Shown here in pieces: positions 1 to 37,057 of a stretch of 64,000 bases of DNA. This DNA is from Escherichia phage vB_EcoM_SA35RD. The stretch lies in the sequence record OL960577.1; one strand, written 5' to 3'. A program made the translations under genes and the position numbers. The notes under the pieces were generated by a model, which was not told the DNA's origin, did no database searches, and saw nothing but the letters and a program-made list of their open reading frames with translations. Position 1 is the first letter of the stretch, and each line of letters begins with the position of its first letter.

Positions 1-286
1 TACCACAGGAATTAAGGGTTCTGTAAACACATTAAATACTCTTATAAATGGCACCAACCCAAATGGTTCGACTGTTGAAGAACGCGGTATATTGCCTACA
101 GTTAAAAGTCACGATACGACAATTAATAGTTTAACTTCTAGAATTGCTACTCTTGAAACTGATTTGGCCGCTGCAGAAGCTGAAATCCAAACTCTTAAGG
201 AAGCTGGATATATTGAAGATGCTCCTTCAGACGGTAAATTCTATGTTCGCAAAGATGGCGCATGGGTTGAACTTCCTACAGCTTAA
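1..286 (+). CDS. wac: fibritin (whisker antigen control), 5'-truncated at window start
   Basis: Open frame from position 2 to stop at 284-286; C-terminus GYIEDAPSDGKFYVRKDGAWVELP resembles the T4 fibritin foldon; lies directly upstream of gene 13 as in T4. Confidence 0.85.
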   Translation, partial: TTGIKGSVNTLNTLINGTNPNGSTVEERGILPTVKSHDTTINSLTSRIATLETDLAAAEAEIQTLKEAGYIEDAPSDGKFYVRKDGAWVELPTA

Positions 287-292
287 TGAAAA

Positions 293-306
293 GGGCCTTC
301 GGGCCC
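293..306 (+). terminator. stem-loop after wac (UUCG tetraloop)
   Basis: GGGCC-TTCG-GGCCC hairpin; no T-tract, so may be a stabiliser rather than a terminator. Confidence 0.45.
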
Positions 307-318
307 TAAAGGATTTAT

Positions 319-1245
319 ATGTCAGGTTATAATGCACAAAACCCTAAAGAATTAAAGGATGTAATATTACGTCGTTTAGGCGCTCCTATTGTAAATGTTG
401 AATTAACTACGGACCAAATTTATGATTGTATTTCACGAGCGTTAGAACTTTATGGCGAATACCATTTTGACGGGTTGAATAAAGGTTTCCATGTATTTTT
501 TGTTGATGACGAAGAAAAATACCGTCATGGCGTATTTGATATGCGTGGTTCTAACGTATTTGCCGTAACAAGAATTATAAGAACAAATGTTGGCTCTATT
601 ACTTCAATGGATGGTAATGCAACTTATCCATGGTTCACTGATTTCCTTTTAGGAATGGCTGGTGTTTCAGGTGGTATGGGTAGTAATTGTGGTAAATTCT
701 ACGGCCCTAACGCTTTTGGCGCTGATCTCGGGTATTATTCTCAATTAGTATCTTATATGGGTATGCTTCAAGATATGATTGCTCCTCTCCCAGATTTTTG
801 GTTTAACTCTGCAAACGAGCAATTAAAAGTAATGGGTAACTTTAGACAGAAAGATGTCATTATCGTTGAATCATATGTTCGCTCTTATATCGAGACCCAT
901 AAGATGGTAGGAAATACAGTAGGGTACGGACAGGTCGGTCCTCGTGATTCATGGTCTATTTCTGAGCGGTATGACAACCCGGACCATAATTTGGTCGGAC
1001 GTCGAGTTGGTGAAGATCCTGCAACTAAACAAGGCGCATATAACAACCGCTGGGTTAAAGATTACGCAACTGCATTAGCTAAAGAGCTTAATGGGCAAAT
1101 TCTTGCTAAACATCAAGGTATGATGTTACCGGGTGGCGTCACTGTTGATGGTGTTCGATTAATTGAAGAAGCTCGTTTAGAGAAAGAAGCTTTACGAGAA
1201 GAGTTATATTTACTGGACCCTCCTGCAGGTATTTTGGTAGGTTAA
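319..1245 (+). CDS. 13: neck protein gp13
   Basis: 308 aa; N-terminus [29 protein letters not shown] matches recalled T4 gp13; synteny wac-13-14. Confidence 0.9.
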
Positions 1246-1246
1246 T

Positions 1247-2011
1247 ATGGCAACTTATGATAAAAATCTTTTCGCCAAGCTAGAAAATCGTGGCGGGTAT
1301 TCTCAGACAAATGAAACCGAAATCCTCAATCCATTTGTCAATTTTAATAATTATGAGAATAGTCAGACCTTAGCCGATGTTCTAGTGGCAGAAAGCATAC
1401 AGATGCGCGGTATTGAATGTTTTTATGTTCCACGTGAATATGTTGCAGTGGACCTTATCTTTGGTGAGGACCTTAAAAATAAATTTACTAAAGCATGGAA
1501 ATTTGCTGCATATCTGAACTCTTTTGAAGGTTATGAAGGAGCGAAATCGTTCTTCAGCAACTTCGGAATGCAAGTTCAAGACGAAGTTACATTATCTATT
1601 AACCCAGGTCTTTTCAAACACCAGGTCAACAATCAGGAGCCTAAGGAAGGTGATTTAATATACTTCCCAATGGACAACAGTTTGTTTGAGATTAACTGGG
1701 TTGAACCATATGACCCATTCTATCAAGTAGGTAAAAATGCTATTCGTAAAATTACTGCAGGCAAGTTTATTTACTCTGGCGAAGAAATCAATCCGGTGCT
1801 TCAGAAAAATGAAGGTATCAATATACCTGAATTTAGTGACTTGGAACTTAACCCTGTTAGAAATCTTGACGGTATCCATGACATTAATATCGATGAATAT
1901 TCTGAAGTTGAGCAAATCAATTCAGAGGCAAGTGAATACGTTGAGCCGTATGTAGTAGTTAACAACCGTGGTAGACAAAATTCACCATTTGACGATGGGT
2001 TTATGAATTAA
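1247..2011 (+). CDS. 14: neck protein gp14
   Basis: 254 aa ORF abutting gene 13, size and position as T4 gp14. Confidence 0.85.
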
Positions 2012-2034
2012 TAAATAGATAAGATAAAGCAAAC

Positions 2035-2052
2035 ACCGGTCGAAAGGCCGGT
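2035..2052 (+). terminator. intercistronic stem-loop between genes 14 and 15 (GAAA tetraloop)
   Basis: ACCGGTC-GAAA-GGCCGGT hairpin; no T-tract. Confidence 0.4.
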
Positions 2053-2063
2053 TAGGAGAAATG

Positions 2064-2885
2064 ATGTTTGGCTATTTTTACAACTCGTCGTTCAGGCGAT
2101 ATATCACAATGATGGGCGATTTGTTTTCAAATATCCAAGTTAACCGTCAATTGTCTACAGGCAATAAATTAATTAGAGTTCCTATCACGTATGCATCTAA
2201 AGAGCACTTTATGATGAAACTTAATAAATGGACCTCTATAAACTCACAAGAAGATGTGGCTAAAGTCGAAACTATTCTACCACGTATAAATCTCCAAATG
2301 GTAGATTTCGTTTATAACCCAACGTTTAAAACGAATATATTGAATAACTCTCTTTTGAGTAAATCGACTAAGGATATTGTAGACCAATACAACCCATCAC
2401 CAATTAAAATGATTTTTGAACTGAGCATCTTTACTCGTTATGAAGATGATATGTTCCAAATCGTTGAGCAAATTATTCCATATTTTCAGCCGCATTTTAA
2501 TACGACTATGATTGAGCAATACGGACAGGATATTCCATTTGAAAGGGATATTAAAGTCGTATGGATGGCAGCAGCAATGGATGAACAAATAGACGGTGAT
2601 AATTTATCTCGTCGACGTTTAGAGTGGTCATTAACATTTGAAGTAAATGGATGGATGTATCCTCCGGTAGGCGCAGCTGAAGGCCTTATTAAAACGACTT
2701 ATCTTGATTTTCATGCTAATGAACGAGACCTTCAAACAGCCGCCAGTGTTTTTGAATCAGTTGATACAGAAATTAAACCGAGAGACGTTGAAGCACAAGA
2801 TTGGAATGGTGAAGTTGAACAAACTTATACTCATGATATTCCAATCCCGACTCCACCAACCCCTCCTGGTCCTAGAAAACAATAA
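2064..2885 (+). CDS. 15: tail sheath stabilizer / tail completion protein gp15
   Basis: Second ATG chosen (MFGYFYNSSFRRY matches recalled T4 gp15 N-terminus; better SD spacing); track ORF starts 3 nt earlier at 2061. Confidence 0.85.
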   Translation: MFGYFYNSSFRRYITMMGDLFSNIQVNRQLSTGNKLIRVPITYASKEHFMMKLNKWTSINSQEDVAKVETILPRINLQMVDFVYNPTFKTNILNNSLLSKSTKDIVDQYNPSPIKMIFELSIFTRYEDDMFQIVEQIIPYFQPHFNTTMIEQYGQDIPFERDIKVVWMAAAMDEQIDGDNLSRRRLEWSLTFEVNGWMYPPVGAAEGLIKTTYLDFHANERDLQTAASVFESVDTEIKPRDVEAQDWNGEVEQTYTHDIPIPTPPTPPGPRKQ

Positions 2886-2894
2886 GAGGTAAAT

Positions 2895-5211
<2,317 letters not shown>

Positions 5212-31018: not shown

Positions 31019-31053
31019 AGTGTTTTCCTTTTAGTAATAATTTATATTTATGC

Positions 31054-31074
31054 CAAAAAGAGCCCGAAGGCTCT
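31054..31074 (-). terminator. terminator after the small ORF between gene 30 and alt
   Basis: AGAGCC-CGAA-GGCTCT; on the minus strand followed by TTTTTGG. Confidence 0.6.
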
Positions 31075-31262
31075 TAATCCACAATCGGAAGCAAAGTACG
31101 ATAAACTTCAAAATTAGAGCCTTTTTCGTACTTATCGAAATTGTCCATAAAAATATGATAGGAATCGTTATTAGGAAAATCTAATATAATCTGAGAGCAA
31201 GAGGTGGAAACATCTCCACCATCCTTCTTAGCTACAATAACTGTTTCTAAATAAGCTTTCAT
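31074..31262 (-). CDS. hypothetical small protein between gene 30 and alt
   Basis: Start at ATG 31262 (TAATG overlap with ligase stop); track ORF begins at a GTG at 31283; terminator downstream. Confidence 0.4.
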   Translation of the reverse strand: MKAYLETVIVAKKDGGDVSTSCSQIILDFPNNDSYHIFMDNFDKYEKGSNFEVYRTLLPIVD

Positions 31263-32755
31263 TATAAACCTGTCTGGGACCACGGTCCAAATACGTCTTC
31301 AAATGAATCCGCTTCTGTTTTATCAAAACGGAACCCTTTAATAATTGGAAGGAAAATACCTACAGTGCCTTCACGGCCTTTAGAATGAACCCAACCATTG
31401 CATTCACAATCAGCAATACGTCCAATCAATTTACCTTCACGAGCTTCGGTCATTAATCGTTCACGGTCTAAATCATGACGCTCGTCTAAAGGAATAAGAA
31501 CCTTTACACCGTCAACTGTTTTATGAGTTGTATCTTTAAAACCTGAACCACAATCAGTTGTAATACGACGACAACGTGATACGAGTTCGACACCACCTAA
31601 TTTGTTAGGGTCTTTAGAGTGTTCATAGTATCCTACAACTTCTAAAGCGATATCAATAACTTCTTTAAATTTAATTAGGTTCTTAGAGCGTTTGTTTTCC
31701 CAATATGAATCACGGTTTTTAAGGATAATACCTTCAAGACCTTGGTCAACATATTTTTTATAAACCACTTTAGCTTCGTCAAGATTACGAACTAACTGAT
31801 TTTCAATTGGCTCAATTCGCTTAAAGCCTTCAGCCATATTTTCAAGAGCAGCAAAACGAACATCGTATTTCTGACCTTTAATTTTGCCGTCAGAATAGAC
31901 TTCATCTAAAGGAACATAGTCCCAGGCTTGAAGAACCATACCTTCCGCTTCTTTAGGAGAAATAGTCCCTTGAAGAGATTTATTTGCTAAACCGTTTGAA
32001 GTGCTACGGTCCGCAACTTGTACTTCTTCGGATTCTTCATTATCACCAAATAAGAACGACAGGTCATTTCCTGAGCTCACAGCCTTTTTAATATCAAATG
32101 AATGATAAACTAATTCACCGTCGATTAAAACCCCATTAGGATGTCTTTCACGAGCTTCTTTAGTCATTTCCATCAGTTCATCCGCTAATAGAGTAAGACC
32201 ATGATATTCGTTACCGGCACGAGAAAAGAATTGAACACCGTCATCGCGAACTTCAGCGAAACAACGAGCACCATCTGCTTTTAATTGGGCAAATGCAGGC
32301 CATTTAATATTTTTAGTAATCAATTTCTCATCATATGCAGATGCTAACATCTGTGGTTGCAATTGAATAAGTCCAGGCCACACCTTATTCGCGATAGACA
32401 CTGAAGCACCTACTTCAAGGTCGCGCATCATTACACGACGAAGGACTTCTACATCATCAGGTTTACCGTCAGCGATATAACCCATGAGCTCTTTAATTGC
32501 AGCATTACCAGTGAGTTTACGAGTGGCTAATGTGAACTCAATAAAATCCAACATGTCATCTAATTCAAGAAGACCGTATGCTTGAGACCTTTCACCTGGC
32601 CCCGGCCATTTCTTAATATAATACTGGATACCACGTGCATATGTTAAACGATACACACGTTCAAGTAATTTGTTGTCCTTATTTTTCTTAAGGATTTCTT
32701 GTTTTGTTTTAGTAGAACCGATCGCAGCTATTTGGTTTAAAATATCTAAAATCAT
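31262..32755 (-). CDS. 30: ATP-dependent DNA ligase gp30
   Basis: 497 aa; N-terminus MILDILNQIAAIGSTKTKQEILKKNKDNKLL and C-terminus match recalled T4 DNA ligase. Confidence 0.95.
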   Translation of the reverse strand: MILDILNQIAAIGSTKTKQEILKKNKDNKLLERVYRLTYARGIQYYIKKWPGPGERSQAYGLLELDDMLDFIEFTLATRKLTGNAAIKELMGYIADGKPDDVEVLRRVMMRDLEVGASVSIANKVWPGLIQLQPQMLASAYDEKLITKNIKWPAFAQLKADGARCFAEVRDDGVQFFSRAGNEYHGLTLLADELMEMTKEARERHPNGVLIDGELVYHSFDIKKAVSSGNDLSFLFGDNEESEEVQVADRSTSNGLANKSLQGTISPKEAEGMVLQAWDYVPLDEVYSDGKIKGQKYDVRFAALENMAEGFKRIEPIENQLVRNLDEAKVVYKKYVDQGLEGIILKNRDSYWENKRSKNLIKFKEVIDIALEVVGYYEHSKDPNKLGGVELVSRCRRITTDCGSGFKDTTHKTVDGVKVLIPLDERHDLDRERLMTEAREGKLIGRIADCECNGWVHSKGREGTVGIFLPIIKGFRFDKTEADSFEDVFGPWSQTGL

Positions 32756-33021
32756 TTGATGTCCTCGATTTTGGTTACGGTTCTATTATAAGCCACTTCA
32801 TCTAGAAGCGATTTCAGCGTTTTCTGATAAGTGGTAATCCATTTACCGAGACCTTCAACATAGTATTCTGAAATGTAGATGAACCCTTGTTCAACACACT
32901 CTTTAAATATTTCTGCGTCTTTTACTGAACGAAACAATGGCCAGTCTCGAAAGAACATGTTAACGTGACCGTAGTCACGTGTGGTATTTTTGCCATCTGT
33001 AATATCATGAACTACAAACAT
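32752..33021 (-). CDS. hypothetical protein (30.x region)
   Basis: 89 aa ORF with ATGA overlap with gene 30; synteny only. Confidence 0.5.
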   Translation of the reverse strand: MFVVHDITDGKNTTRDYGHVNMFFRDWPLFRSVKDAEIFKECVEQGFIYISEYYVEGLGKWITTYQKTLKSLLDEVAYNRTVTKIEDIK

Positions 33022-33030
33022 AATTAACCC

Positions 33031-33846
33031 TTAACAATTTATAGACCAAGTCCATTTGGACGAATCTAAAGGAAAGTTTTGAATCGTCCACCATGGCTGC
33101 ATATCGGTTGGTCCTGGGGTTCGCCAGGTATACGGATTCGACGGAGCGCCAATTTGATTAGGCCATGCGCCTGGACTTGTTGCACCAGATTCTTTAAGCA
33201 AATCCGCCAATCGTTTTAAAAGGTCTTCACGATCTGAATCTGAATTATGCTCGGGTGGAACCAAACGAGATTCAATATCATCCCACGTGTGTACACGTTG
33301 TGCAGTACGAGGAATGGCATCACGTTCACCACGAGCCAACCAATAAATCGGTACATTAAGAATTTCTGCTGCATGGTCACAGTGATGAGCTAAATCGTCA
33401 ACGTAACAAATCACGTTATATTTTGTTTTAGCTAGTTCAAATAATTGTTCTTTTGAAGAATCATGACCACACATCATTACTTCAGAGAAAGCGCCTGGGA
33501 ACAAAGCATTCAAATTAAATTGTCTATTCAATCGAGCATCAATTGAATCACCTAGCGCCGTCACAGCTACAAAATTATAGTCTTCTTTTAGTTTATTGAT
33601 AACTCGAAGAGCATCCGAATAAGGCGCTAAGTAACGAATAAAATCAGAGCTATTATATTTTTCTATTAATTGTTTACCAAGGTTATCGTCGGTATTGAAC
33701 AGTTTACCAGGAGAAATAAATTTTTCGTCCTGAATCATTTTTAAAATATGTTCTAATGGAAGATTATATTTTTGGGCAAAATAAGGAAGTCCAGATTGCC
33801 AGCTTAAACATACACCATCAATATCAGTCAAAATAGTAGGCTTCAT
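33031..33846 (-). CDS. HAD-superfamily hydrolase-like protein (30.x region)
   Basis: 271 aa; N-terminal DIDGV (HAD motif I) and later YVDD (motif IV-like); Trp-rich C-terminal extension. Confidence 0.55.
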   Translation of the reverse strand: MKPTILTDIDGVCLSWQSGLPYFAQKYNLPLEHILKMIQDEKFISPGKLFNTDDNLGKQLIEKYNSSDFIRYLAPYSDALRVINKLKEDYNFVAVTALGDSIDARLNRQFNLNALFPGAFSEVMMCGHDSSKEQLFELAKTKYNVICYVDDLAHHCDHAAEILNVPIYWLARGERDAIPRTAQRVHTWDDIESRLVPPEHNSDSDREDLLKRLADLLKESGATSPGAWPNQIGAPSNPYTWRTPGPTDMQPWWTIQNFPLDSSKWTWSINC

Positions 33847-34301
33847 AAAGAGTCTCTTAATAGGTTTAACACATCAATAAATTCGGCTTCGGTTAATATT
33901 GTATCATCTTTTGTTAGGTGGCTGGCCATGCTGTGCTTCAAAATTTTTCCTTTAGAGGCTTGTAAGGCATCGCGAAACCCCTTGTTTTGGATCGCGGCTT
34001 CAAAATATGCATTTGTGTATAATTCTTTCCACGCTTCAGAGTATCTTGAAAATGGAACTCCTAACCAGAAGAGAGTCCCACGGTCCTGAGCTCTTGCGTA
34101 AGACCTTCCAGCTTGCTGTGCAGCCAATCCAGACAACCCAAATATATGTCTTTGTTGTTCAACATTTTTCACCTTACATCCTTGGAGAAATCCTTCAAGA
34201 CCTCCGAATTGAATACCATCCATAACAAAAGGCCATTGAGCAAAGTTACTTAATGCACATGACGGCCATTTGAAATTACTTCTTATTTCTAATTCAGACA
34301 T
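33843..34301 (-). CDS. hypothetical protein with YbiA/NADAR-like N-terminal motif (30.x region)
   Basis: Start set at ATG 34301 (track starts at a GTG at 34310); SNFAQWP...DG...E.F.Q..K pattern resembles YbiA/NADAR; C-terminal half does not obviously match. Confidence 0.45.
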   Translation of the reverse strand: MSELEIRSNFKWPSCALSNFAQWPFVMDGIQFGGLEGFLQGCKVKNVEQQRHIFGLSGLAAQQAGRSYARAQDRGTLFWLGVPFSRYSEAWKELYTNAYFEAAIQNKGFRDALQASKGKILKHSMASHLTKDDTILTEAEFIDVLNLLRDSL

Positions 34302-34512
34302 CTTTAACACTTATAATTTCAACATCAGCCCAATGTCCATATCCAGGTATACGGTCTTCGATAGATAAATTTCTGTCATTTTTAGGCATTTTAATTGACG
34401 TAACGTATGGTTCTAAACGGTTTTCCGCGTAATATGGAAAAACGTCGGTTACACGATAAGTAACTTCAATCATTTCCGTACCAAACAATTTCTGGATTAA
34501 TTTATTCAACAT
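34294..34512 (-). CDS. hypothetical protein (30.x region)
   Basis: 72 aa ORF overlapping neighbours at both ends. Confidence 0.45.
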   Translation of the reverse strand: MLNKLIQKLFGTEMIEVTYRVTDVFPYYAENRLEPYVTSIKMPKNDRNLSIEDRIPGYGHWADVEIISVKDV

Positions 34513-34699
34513 GTTTCAACCCTTTAATAGGAGATAACTCTTTACCCATACGTATGTCAGAAGTCCAATCAACCCATTGAACAGCATACGCTTCATTGAT
34601 AATTCCAGCGGCGGTTTTAAATTCAGGGAGAACTTTAAAAATCACCCCAGGAATTCCAACACCTTTTAATTGGACTGTTTGTGCTATTAAAAATTTCAT
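34502..34699 (-). CDS. hypothetical protein (30.x region)
   Basis: 65 aa ORF, ATG start, overlaps downstream ORF. Confidence 0.45.
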   Translation of the reverse strand: MKFLIAQTVQLKGVGIPGVIFKVLPEFKTAAGIINEAYAVQWVDWTSDIRMGKELSPIKGLKHVE

Positions 34700-34753
34700 A
34701 TTTTTCCACTTACTAAAGAAATCATTATACTCTAATCCGTCCTTGGATGTAAA

Positions 34754-35368
34754 CTACTTAATGAAATTAATTTCTACCGGATGAACAACAGGTTGAGCAG
34801 TGATATATTGAGTAATTGCTTTCATGACTAGAGCTTCAGAGCCAGGATTTTTCTCAACGAATTCACGTGCTTGGTTATGAGCTTCAAGTTCACTTAGTAA
34901 ACCACTTCGTTGACATCCACGGTCTTGAGTACCCTGTTCAGATAAAAAGGCGACGATGTATTTTTCATCGTCATAAGGTTTAGGCAGTTGAGCAAATGTT
35001 CCTTTACTTCCAAAAGGAGAGTTATGACGCCACATCACGCCGTGAGGAGTTTCAACCTTCGTATATTCGTGTGGGCCATTTTTCTTAGTTTCTTGATGTG
35101 GAACTTCATGGACCTTAGGGTTAGGACATTCAATAAAATGCTCATCTAAATCAGTCGAGAATATTAAAGTAAAACAATTACTAAATTTACCAACACCTGC
35201 CTGATAAATTTTACCTTCAGACGTTCTAATTTCACAAACCGAGCCAGCATCAGTAACTTCTAAAACTTCAAAAGGCTCGATAAGATCATATGAGAACATG
35301 TTTTTAAGGCGTGGAGTAATATCCCCATTTTTAAAATTCATTTTATAAAAAGTATTAACTTTAAACAT
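34754..35368 (-). CDS. hypothetical His-rich protein (30.x region)
   Basis: 204 aa ORF with SD; stem-loop upstream; no domain recognised. Confidence 0.55.
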   Translation of the reverse strand: MFKVNTFYKMNFKNGDITPRLKNMFSYDLIEPFEVLEVTDAGSVCEIRTSEGKIYQAGVGKFSNCFTLIFSTDLDEHFIECPNPKVHEVPHQETKKNGPHEYTKVETPHGVMWRHNSPFGSKGTFAQLPKPYDDEKYIVAFLSEQGTQDRGCQRSGLLSELEAHNQAREFVEKNPGSEALVMKAITQYITAQPVVHPVEINFIK

Positions 35369-37049: not shown

Positions 37050-37057
37050 TATTTATA
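37050..37057 (-). promoter_or_regulatory. possible late promoter motif (minus strand) upstream of rIII
   Basis: TATAAATA on minus strand about 117 nt before the rIII ATG; distance is long, so weak. Confidence 0.3.

Follow-up and report, generated by a model that had tools for sequence, protein, structure and literature searches.

Genes 30.3 and 30.2 of the T4-like coliphage vB_EcoM_SA35RD: an AdfN ortholog and a predicted capped HAD phosphohydrolase

The window analysed here, a stretch of 64,000 nt from sequence record OL960577.1, belongs to a T4-like coliphage, Escherichia phage vB_EcoM_SA35RD, and shows 98.8% DNA identity to Escherichia phage vB_EcoM_EP32a; at the megablast level, 694 phage records match it. 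An initial annotation had described a HAD-like hydrolase ORF and a YbiA/NADAR-like ORF, coupled by an ATGA and situated downstream of DNA ligase. Both ORFs exist at the positions reported there and encode 271 and 152 aa (Table 1), and the coupling can be read directly, since the plus-strand tcat at 33843-33846 corresponds to ATGA on the coding strand, i.e. a 4-nt overlap. Both ORFs are carried by the minus strand, so that the pair lies upstream rather than downstream of ligase in transcription, with the NADAR gene read before the HAD gene. The order of transcription is 30.5, 30.4, 30.3, 30.2, 30.1, ligase, alt.1 and alt, and the gene order of the locus is the same as in T4. Genes 30.4 and 30.5 overlap one another and the start of 30.3, forming the head of a tightly packed gene run (34294..34699). 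For 30.3, the ATG start yields a protein of 152 aa; the longest ORF begins at an in-frame GTG (34310), 9 nt upstream.

Table 1. Coordinates of genes, subregions and transcription signals at the 30.5 to 30 locus of the window.
Feature	Coordinates	Strand	Basis
Gene 30.3 / adfN, 152 aa	33843..34301	-	96% identity to T4 gp30.3, PF08010, model, Foldseek
Gene 30.3 codon E36 (catalytic)	34196..34194	-	
Gene 30.3 codon K43 (catalytic)	34175..34173	-	
Gene 30.3 codon H123 (catalytic)	33935..33933	-	
Gene 30.2, whole, 271 aa	33031..33846	-	ORF list
Gene 30.2 catalytic core, aa 1-195, predicted HAD fold with helical C1 cap (aa ~13-76)	33262..33846	-	
Gene 30.2 C-terminal tail, aa 196-271 and stop codon	33031..33261	-	low pLDDT, no conserved columns
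ATGA overlap, 30.3 stop codon / 30.2 start codon	33843..33846	-	direct sequence reading; likewise annotated in T4
Gene 30.1 (DUF3045), between 30.2 and ligase	32752..33021	-	PF11243 E 1.4e-26; T4 gene order
Gene 30, ATP-dependent DNA ligase, downstream of 30.3-30.2 in transcription	31262..32755	-	PF01068 E 1.9e-26
Gene 30.4	34294..34512	-	phrog_2042 / phrog_1690 for 30.4 and 30.5; ORF coordinates
Gene 30.5	34502..34699	-	phrog_2042 / phrog_1690 for 30.4 and 30.5; ORF coordinates
Sigma-70-like promoter match, TTTACA-18-TATAAT	34724..34753	-	consensus scan only, 11/12
Position equivalent to T4 middle promoter PM30.2, inside 30.3 3' end	33898..33923	-	X53848 annotation and pairwise DNA alignment

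Gene 30.3 encodes a protein that is 96% identical to T4 gp30.3 over 152/152 aa, and none of the six substitutions relative to T4 (K11R, H52R, E89P, I120V, M125I and H128G) touches a catalytic or invariant position. The NADAR assignment, previously suggested by a short N-terminal pattern, is borne out by profile searches: gp30.3 matches Pfam PF08010 (Phage_30_3) with an E-value of 6.6e-69 (230.5 bits, cutoff 36) over the entire profile (positions 1-138), 12 of 35 family members also match Pfam NADAR PF08719 (best E 1.5e-7), and the family profile matches E. coli YbiA at E 0.0024. This profile was needed to reach solved structures, as a single-sequence search of PDB sequences with gp30.3 gave no matches; searching NCBIfam with gp30.3 and gp30.2 returned nothing useful. 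The pattern itself, SNFAQWP..DG..E.F.Q..K, spans residues 18-43, and none of E36, K43 and H123 varies among 35 relatives, with H123 falling in a predicted strand (residues 120-123). The AlphaFold model (pLDDT 93.6) adopts the NADAR fold over the whole protein, which removes the earlier reservation that the C-terminal half does not fit this family. Its top three Foldseek matches in the PDB are the three solved NADARs, namely YbiA (2b3w; TM 0.66 over 160 columns), PnNADAR (8bau) and GlNADAR (8bat), and the next match has an E-value above 1. The C-terminal helix is intact, given the full length of 152 aa and a helix predicted at residues 138-151.

For T4, it was published that ADP-ribose removal from DNA guanine by AdfN counters DarT (Johannesman, Carlson and LeRoux, PMC11257639; also Cihlova et al., PMC11125620). 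T-even phages escape DarTG1 via gp30.3, i.e. AdfN, a guanine-ADP-ribose DNA glycohydrolase that is necessary and sufficient against DarTG1 and, as a purified protein, strips ADP-ribose from DNA in vitro by itself (PMC11257639). Substitution E36A or K43A abolishes its function, and the RB69 allele, 15 residues shorter, is inactivated by loss of the C-terminal helix; moreover, AdfN is unable to detoxify DarT1 in uninfected cells (PMC11257639). The gp30.3 proteins represent a phage NADAR subfamily in which His replaces the catalytic Glu, the respective residue of the last beta-strand being Glu in YbiA-type NADARs, Asp in DarT1-linked NADARs and His in the gp30.3 subfamily (PMC11125620, PMC11543638). 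In HIDEN-SEQ, a T4 transposon screen, insertions in 30.3 show a log2FC of -7.25 under DarTG1 (q = 0). Thus, gp30.3 of SA35RD is an ortholog of AdfN and should, by orthology, confer escape from DarTG1. The earlier proposal of an enzyme that removes ADP-ribose from DNA guanine and counters DarT has thus been demonstrated for the 96%-identical T4 protein; the NADAR guess was correct yet not new, the role of AdfN already being known. Mechanistically, AdfN of SA35RD would act as a stand-alone NADAR-fold ADP-ribosylglycohydrolase: ADP-ribose placed on guanine of the phage DNA by the host DarT1 toxin would be removed during infection, with catalysis by E36, K43 and the phage-subfamily H123, the latter replacing the Glu/Asp of cellular NADARs, and replication could then proceed in DarTG1-carrying hosts.

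With respect to transcription signals, the best sigma-70-like match of the region sits just upstream of 30.5 and is a candidate early promoter for 30.5-30.4-30.3. A further signal is the middle promoter PM30.2, which T4 record X53848 annotates inside the 3' end of 30.3; pairwise DNA alignment of the equivalent position shows that the -10 region is kept, while in the upstream (MotA-box) part several bases deviate from those of T4. T4 insertions in 30.4 are depleted under DarTG1, an observation that agrees with an early promoter upstream of 30.5 without proving it. The initial annotation had moreover placed the pair in one early transcription unit with alt. Between alt.1 and alt, we found a hairpin (31074..31059) followed by TTTT and a late-promoter-like TATAAATT (31046..31039) located 20 nt before the alt ATG; in T4, an exact TATAAATA stands 29 nt ahead of the alt ATG. 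Given the hairpin and the late-promoter-like box, an early unit common to the pair and alt is unsupported.

For gp30.2, the presence of HAD motif I and of a DD motif, noted before, was confirmed and extended to a full motif set. Motif I corresponds to D8-I-D10-G-V12 (D8 to D10 at 33825..33817), motif II to T96, motif III to K132 (33453..33451) and motif IV to D150-D151 (33399..33394), the codons of motif I and of the DD having been checked by hand. In an alignment of 110 relatives with a mean column identity of 17%, D8, D10, R108 and K132 show no variation, and conservation of W16, T96 and D151 is at least 90%; catalytic residues kept at such divergence argue that the motifs are not due to chance. 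The model shows a Rossmannoid HAD core fold with a large helical C1 cap that closes the active site. When searched alone, gp30.2 falls below every Pfam/NCBIfam HAD threshold (HAD_2, 16 bits vs 23.8; TIGR01428, 12.7 bits vs 125.4), so that its HAD membership rests on fold and motifs; some GenBank records label it HAD-like hydrolase or putative phosphatase. Within the HAD superfamily, a second Asp in motif I is the hallmark of phosphatases and mutases and sets them apart from dehalogenases. The intact aspartyl-phosphate catalytic set, as read from the sequence, thus fits a phosphatase and not a dehalogenase. Hence, gp30.2 would be a C1-capped HAD-superfamily phosphohydrolase with a Mg-dependent phosphatase fold, in which D8 may serve as nucleophile and D10 as acid/base, together with T96, K132 and D150-D151 for Mg2+. 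The C-terminal tail differs from this core. A predicted helix (aa 203-219) is followed by a disordered Trp/Pro-rich stretch, model pLDDT drops to 34-63 beyond residue 220, and the alignment has no conserved columns past about residue 195. The tail is hypervariable and absent from many relatives, numerous homologs comprising only 196-220 aa, and its DNA segment is mosaic relative to T4 with both flanks conserved; in long relatives (P0264, P0304, P0208, P0250) no Pfam domain was found outside the HAD part. Such a variable, disordered tail may act as a docking or regulatory appendage.

Which phosphatase family lies closest becomes apparent only with a broad family profile. On its own, gp30.2 yields nothing better than E 0.12 (to cdN) against PDB sequences and no match to Pfam NT5C (PF06941), and a profile built from T4-like phages only finds no HAD in the PDB. 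The 110-member profile, in contrast, matches 3bwv, a putative deoxyribonucleotidase, along the entire length (E 1.8e-6), and mdN/cdN at E about 0.008. NT5C is also the commonest Pfam match among the relatives (36/110, best 4.2e-10). Furthermore, W16 aligns with the Phe after motif I of cdN (DGVLADFESGL), within a shared DGV..D/S-W/F-.SGL. In cdN and mdN, the aromatic residue eight positions after the nucleophile stacks on the base. By family profile, gp30.2 thus appears most closely related to the 5'(3')-deoxyribonucleotidases (NT5C), in line with the phosphatase or nucleotidase originally suggested, and given this proximity its most likely substrate is a (deoxy)nucleoside monophosphate or some comparable small phosphoester. 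Since T4 reuses the dNMPs of its host, a general phosphatase for them would apparently work against the phage, unless the enzyme discriminates among its substrates. A full-text literature search for gp30.2 and the names 30.1/30.2/30.3 turned up no functional study of 30.2. According to T4 transposon data, the gene is non-essential, insertions having no phenotype in LB, M9 or DarTG1 hosts, an outcome that lends no support to a role of gp30.2 in nucleotide metabolism.

Taken together, we assign the locus, with a probability of roughly 90%, to the T4 gene pair 30.3-30.2 in Tequatrovirus, 30.3 being adfN and 30.2 encoding a capped, nucleotidase-like HAD phosphohydrolase. Alternatively, the substrate of gp30.2 might lie beyond ordinary dNMPs, a possibility to which we give limited weight. 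The protein would then be a phosphatase for a host- or defence-derived phosphoester (candidates being nucleotides that are toxic or act as signals, and sugar phosphates), i.e. an accessory counter-defence or host-takeover factor with a host-specific phenotype. Consistent with this, 30.2 is non-essential in T4 yet kept in >1,400 phage records, it resides within an accessory gene run that holds a proven counter-defence gene, and even close relatives differ in its tail, which is hypervariable and mosaic; however, the sole family-level sequence signal favours nucleotidases, and 30.2 shows no phenotype under the conditions of the published T4 screen. Rather unlikely, in our estimate, is that gp30.2 is a selective nucleotidase for host range or counter-defence that destroys a harmful or defence-made nucleotide (a chain-terminating or signalling NMP), its tail co-evolving with host factors. 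If true, this would explain why 30.2 is kept in >1,400 T4-like genomes though dispensable in laboratory E. coli K-12.

A role in DNA end healing is improbable. In this case gp30.2 would be a nucleic-acid 3'-phosphatase that readies nicks for the downstream DNA ligase, like the HAD phosphatase domain of PNKP. Indeed, 30.2 lies immediately, or one small gene, upstream of ligase in T4, Klebsiella phage KP15, Aeromonas phage 65 and Acinetobacter phage KARL-1, and 1 of the 110 relatives weakly matches Pfam HAD_PNKP. Gene order is, however, often conserved in T4-like phages without a functional link, T4 already has PseT for the 3'-phosphatase job, and the profiles favour NT5C, not PNKP. The large helical C1 cap that closes the active site in the model likewise speaks against this role. 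C1 caps are typical of small-molecule HAD phosphatases, whereas PNKP-type DNA phosphatases are capless.

The coupling of the two genes raises the question of whether their products work together, either as a two-step module in which AdfN frees ADP-ribose and the HAD phosphatase processes the product or the residual sugar-phosphate, or with gp30.2 as the factor that confines AdfN activity to infected cells. Besides the ATGA overlap, it fits such a module that about 1,450-1,500 phage records contain each gene, with host genera distributed almost identically, and that AdfN fails against DarT1 in uninfected cells, the rescue having been done in RB69 infections and RB69 having its own 30.2. In addition, genes for ligase, a T5-dNMPase-like HAD and a NADAR matching PF08010 lie on the same strand within a 4-kb stretch of an unrelated phage contig (two overlapping assemblies, 59-70 kb). 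Against this, T4 insertions in 30.2 are not depleted under DarTG1 (log2FC -0.12, p 0.61), in marked contrast to those in 30.3, and purified AdfN needs no partner in vitro. Neither is the adjacency kept: two ORFs separate 30.3 from 30.2 in KP15, Aeromonas phage 65 has 30.2 adjoining ligase with no 30.3 nearby, and no 30.2-like gene adjoins the distant PF08010 NADARs of other contigs. For DarTG1 in T4 the module is thus largely refuted, and overall we regard it as very improbable; the published screen data speak against gp30.2 as a partner of AdfN, and the functional pair implied by the initial annotation finds no backing. Gene 30.2 is not needed against DarTG1, and by synteny its tie to ligase is closer than that to 30.3; the ATGA overlap therefore reflects the compact packing of T4 genes. 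It is part of a co-oriented T4 gene run ending at DNA ligase rather than a sign of a demonstrated two-enzyme pathway. A conserved NADAR-HAD module outside the T4-like phages was considered as well and rejected, since neither of the two NADAR neighbours compared by hhalign is a relative of gp30.2, one being encoded by a 199-aa gene that overlaps its NADAR gene, the other by a 254-aa gene directly following a different NADAR gene; the T5-dNMPase-like protein of the above contig aligns with the gp30.2 family in motif I only. Finally, the lack of a known phenotype and the scores below the thresholds of curated HAD models might suggest a HAD-fold protein that is devoid of catalysis and plays a structural or regulatory part; for gp30.2 this is hardly credible, because four catalytic motifs that stay invariant or nearly so at 17% mean column identity indicate selection on catalysis.

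In practical terms, the intact adfN predicts that SA35RD plates on DarTG1-carrying E. coli; its presence is useful for annotation and for the choice of therapeutic phages, though not a discovery. For gp30.2, one of many conserved T4 gene products dispensable in the laboratory, the analysis narrows the assignment to a predicted active, capped HAD phosphatase nearest to deoxyribonucleotidases.

Compared with known systems, gp30.3 of SA35RD equals T4 AdfN in orthology, length (152 aa), genomic position, the residues E36/K43/H123 and an intact C-terminal helix, and differs from it by its six substitutions. With the DarG1/DarT1-associated NADAR antitoxins and YbiA (8bat, 8bau, 2b3w) it shares the fold and the N-terminal motif SNF..P..DG..E.F.Q..K, and DarG1/DarT1-associated, YbiA and gp30.3-type NADARs are all guanine-ADP-ribose hydrolases (PMC11543638). 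Unlike these antitoxins and YbiA, phage gp30.3 is an orphan without a linked toxin, has His instead of Asp or Glu as catalytic residue of the last strand and is shorter (152 aa vs 168-219). For gp30.2, T4 PseT (polynucleotide kinase-phosphatase), whose gene lies about 6 kb from 30.2 within the same T4 gene run, belongs to the same superfamily, and its HAD-type 3'-phosphatase domain has the same DxDxT chemistry. PseT acts on nucleic-acid ends and is without a cap, whereas gp30.2 carries a large cap and lacks a kinase domain. The deoxynucleoside-5'-monophosphatase of phage T5 (PF26880, Phage_T5_dNMPase) sets a precedent for a phage HAD-type dNMP phosphatase, and a gene of this kind occurs near the gp30.3-type NADAR in the unrelated phage contig; gp30.2 itself gives no match to PF26880. 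NT5C members (human and mouse cdN, mdN; S. epidermidis 3bwv) rank first in both the profile and the Foldseek comparisons with gp30.2, with which they have in common the HAD core, the helical C1 cap, motif IV DD and a motif I D-x-D-G-V followed by an aromatic residue eight residues on and then SGL. In comparison with NT5C, gp30.2 shows 13-19% identity, stays under the Pfam NT5C threshold, and has a larger cap and an extra variable tail of 75 residues.

The ORF that the initial annotation had proposed as a NADAR protein, i.e. a member of the ADP-ribosylglycohydrolase superfamily that includes E. coli YbiA, to be checked by HMM search and structure comparison, encodes gp30.3, now called AdfN. The 152-aa protein shows 96% identity to T4 gp30.3 over 152/152 residues and matches Pfam family Phage_30_3 (PF08010) with 230.5 bits. 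Its NADAR relationship was checked in four independent ways and proved correct. Hereby, Pfam NADAR (PF08719) is also matched by 12 of 35 gp30.3 family members (best E 1.5e-7), and the family profile matches YbiA (2b3w; E 0.0024) across the SNF..P..DG..E.F.Q..K motif. For the AlphaFold model, built from 35 sequences (mean pLDDT 93.6), the three solved NADARs come out on top in the PDB, namely YbiA (E 2.6e-5, TM 0.66 over 160 columns), the Phytophthora NADAR and the Geobacter DarG1-type NADAR, with no other PDB match below E = 1. Since the model shows the NADAR fold over the whole protein, the C-terminal half, previously described as not obviously fitting, is part of this fold as well. The family alignment shows no variation at E36, K43 or H123, and H123 lies on the last predicted strand. 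Within the NADARs, phage gp30.3 proteins constitute a subfamily with His at this position in place of the catalytic Glu or Asp (PMC11125620; PMC11543638).

Resistance to DarTG1, a bacterial defence whose toxin DarT1 ADP-ribosylates DNA guanine, was mapped by Johannesman, Carlson and LeRoux to gene 30.3, renamed adfN, which is both necessary and sufficient for T-even escape (PMC11257639). Purified AdfN takes ADP-ribose off DarT1-modified DNA, E36A and K43A each abolish its function, and the RB69 allele, shortened by 15 residues, is inactive (PMC11257639). Uninfected cells are not rescued from DarT1 by AdfN, which the authors explain by AdfN preferring phage DNA that is hydroxymethylated (PMC11257639). 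In vitro, a phage NADAR hydrolyses guanine-ADP-ribose (Cihlova et al., PMC11125620), and in a T4 transposon screen (HIDEN-SEQ) 30.3/adfN was conditionally essential under DarTG1, with tk.4, a macrodomain gene, filling the equivalent role for DarTG2 (bioRxiv 10.1101/2025.11.20.689424). As the allele in the window is not truncated and retains every catalytic residue, we infer from its sequence that it should share the function of T4 AdfN. Truncated gp30.3 products of 86-109 aa are found in several T4-like phages, i.e. SV76, UGJNEcP4, vB_Eco_NR1 and vB_EcoM-RPN226 (our protein handles P0106, P0113, P0116, P0153), those of NR1 and RPN226 also matching the neighbouring-gene families PF11097 and PF06019; by analogy with RB69, such phages may be sensitive to DarTG1.

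At the DNA level, the window shares 98.8% identity with Escherichia phage vB_EcoM_EP32a, 694 T4-like records match by megablast, and the gene order here is that of T4. Both ORFs lie at the positions originally proposed, and their ATGA coupling is evident by direct reading (plus-strand 'tcat', 33843-33846), but they are encoded on the minus strand, where transcription runs 30.5, 30.4, 30.3, 30.2, 30.1, ligase, alt.1-like ORF, Alt. Thus, the pair is situated upstream of the DNA ligase gene and not downstream, with the NADAR gene leading. The longest mechanical ORF of 30.3 in the ORF listing extends to a GTG at 34310. In place of T4 30.6 (95 aa) stands a 204-aa ORF (34754..35368, minus strand; phrog_17531, E 1.8e-146) with no Pfam match and no homology to T4 30.6. 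The T4 out-of-frame ORF 30.3' (75 aa, inside 30.3) is stopped after 34 codons in the window copy (33938..34165, minus strand) and is thus not conserved as an ORF in a close T4 relative, which argues against 30.3' as a real gene.

Features of the 30.5 to alt region, in transcription order
Feature	Position	Strand	Details
Strongest sigma-70-like match of the region	34753..34724	-	consensus match only; between the 204-aa ORF and 30.5
T4 30.5 family ORF		-	65 aa; phrog_1690; first in transcription order
T4 30.4 family ORF	34294..34512	-	72 aa; phrog_2042; directly upstream of adfN, overlapping its start
Gene 30.3 ORF	33843..34301	-	152 aa from ATG; ORF listing and direct reading
PM30.2 equivalent site	33898..33923	-	T4 record annotates middle promoter PM30.2 inside the 30.3 3' end
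Gene 30.2 ORF	33031..33846	-	271 aa; ORF listing and direct reading
30.1		-	DUF3045 protein; after 30.2, before ligase
ATP-dependent DNA ligase		-	after 30.1
alt.1-like small ORF		-	between ligase and Alt ADP-ribosyltransferase
Hairpin	31074..31059	-	between alt.1 and alt; AGAGCC-TTCG-GGCTCT, then TTTT
TATAAATT	31046..31039	-	20 nt ahead of alt ATG

The gp30.2 protein is a capped phosphatase of the haloacid dehalogenase-like (HAD) superfamily, as had been suspected, although curated sequence models missed it (HAD_2 16 bits, cutoff 23.8; nothing in NCBIfam); the fold and the catalytic motifs instead carry the assignment. It belongs to phrog_420, which is labelled 'function unknown'. The model (pLDDT > 90 over residues 1-195) has a helical insertion that separates motifs I and II (about residues 13-76), corresponding to a C1 cap, and after the core one helix (203-219) followed by disorder. 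Foldseek returned 106 PDB matches at E <= 0.001, led by cytosolic 5'(3')-deoxyribonucleotidase (2jao, E 6.7e-8). The set of catalytic motifs is complete (D8-x-D10-G-V, T96, K132, D150-D151) and shows little or no variation, both in 33 T4-like relatives and in 110 wider ones; the latter come from searching 1.8 billion representatives, among which 1,011 clusters reached E <= 0.001. Two Asp in HAD motif I denote phosphoryl transfer and not dehalogenation. The broad family profile aligns end to end with a putative S. epidermidis 5'(3')-deoxyribonucleotidase (3bwv, E 1.8e-6) and matches the NT5C-family nucleotidases mdN/cdN at E about 0.008, NT5C is the most frequent Pfam family among the relatives (36/110, best E 4.2e-10), and W16 aligns with the cdN Phe following motif I. 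Given the HAD assignment, nucleotide-monophosphate phosphatase is thus the best-supported activity, to which we assign a probability of about one half. Some GenBank records already label 30.2 'haloacid dehalogenase-like hydrolase domain-containing protein' or 'putative phosphatase'.

Identity to T4 gp30.2 is 70% overall, about 88% over the first ~195 residues, the remainder being essentially unalignable. The last ~76 codons (33031..33261, minus strand) form a mosaic segment unalignable with T4 as DNA and as protein, flanked by a 30.2 core and a 30.1 start that are both conserved, and many relatives lack the tail altogether; it is hypervariable. A loose 'W-R/K-x-P-G..P-W/Y' motif recurs among some tails.

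Beyond their ATGA overlap, 30.2 and 30.3 have near-identical distributions with matching host genera (tblastn: 1,437 and 1,509 phage records), which speaks for a functional link. However, the evidence is mostly against a functional pair. Their adjacency is not conserved among the T4-like phages compared: Acinetobacter phage KARL-1 retains the pair, two ORFs separate them in Klebsiella phage KP15, and in Aeromonas phage 65 the order is gp32, 30.2, one ORF, ligase, with no 30.3 nearby, ligase being the constant neighbour of 30.2 in all three. Distant PF08010 NADARs on other phage contigs likewise have no gp30.2-like neighbour. Decisively, the supplementary tables accompanying the T4 screen show no depletion of 30.2 insertions under DarTG1 (log2FC -0.12, p 0.61; 71 TA sites), whereas 30.3 insertions are depleted (log2FC -7.25, q = 0); the control-versus-DarTG1 sheet, S6, was recognised by its position two before the labelled S8 and by the 30.3 depletion. 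T4 30.2 also tolerates insertions at 72/72 sites, i.e. is non-essential, and its insertions behave neutrally when LB and M9 are compared. Hence, gp30.2 is not required for the known job of AdfN in T4. On one unrelated phage contig (59-70 kb), represented by the overlapping assemblies L009 and L010 (positions 1..4456), a DNA ligase, a 175-aa T5-dNMPase-like HAD and a PF08010 NADAR lie within 4 kb on one strand, a set loosely resembling the T4 neighbourhood.

The genes of the run are co-oriented and tightly packed. Depletion of 30.4 insertions under DarTG1 (log2FC -1.79, q 0.014; same tables) probably reflects polarity on adfN, fitting a promoter upstream, though 30.4 might also contribute itself. 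At PM30.2 the window keeps the T4 -10 region unchanged, whereas several bases of the MotA-box region upstream of it are different (T4 ...ATTGCTAGTGGTC..., window ...ATGGCCAGCCACC...), so that middle-mode expression of 30.2 may differ in this phage. The suggestion that the pair shares one early unit with alt is not supported, because the hairpin and TATAAATT intervene and the equivalent T4 site carries TATAAATA, an exact late promoter; alt would thus seem to form a unit of its own that is expressed late. The octamer TATAAATA occurs 18 times in the whole window (about 7 expected), mostly on the plus strand at 5 to 27 kb, the structural-gene side, with one copy at 37050..37057 (minus strand) between gene 31 and rIII.

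In conclusion, the observation was real except for strand and direction, and its family interpretation was right. The NADAR gene is an already published, experimentally characterised counter-defence gene, and its recognition here was correct, not new.
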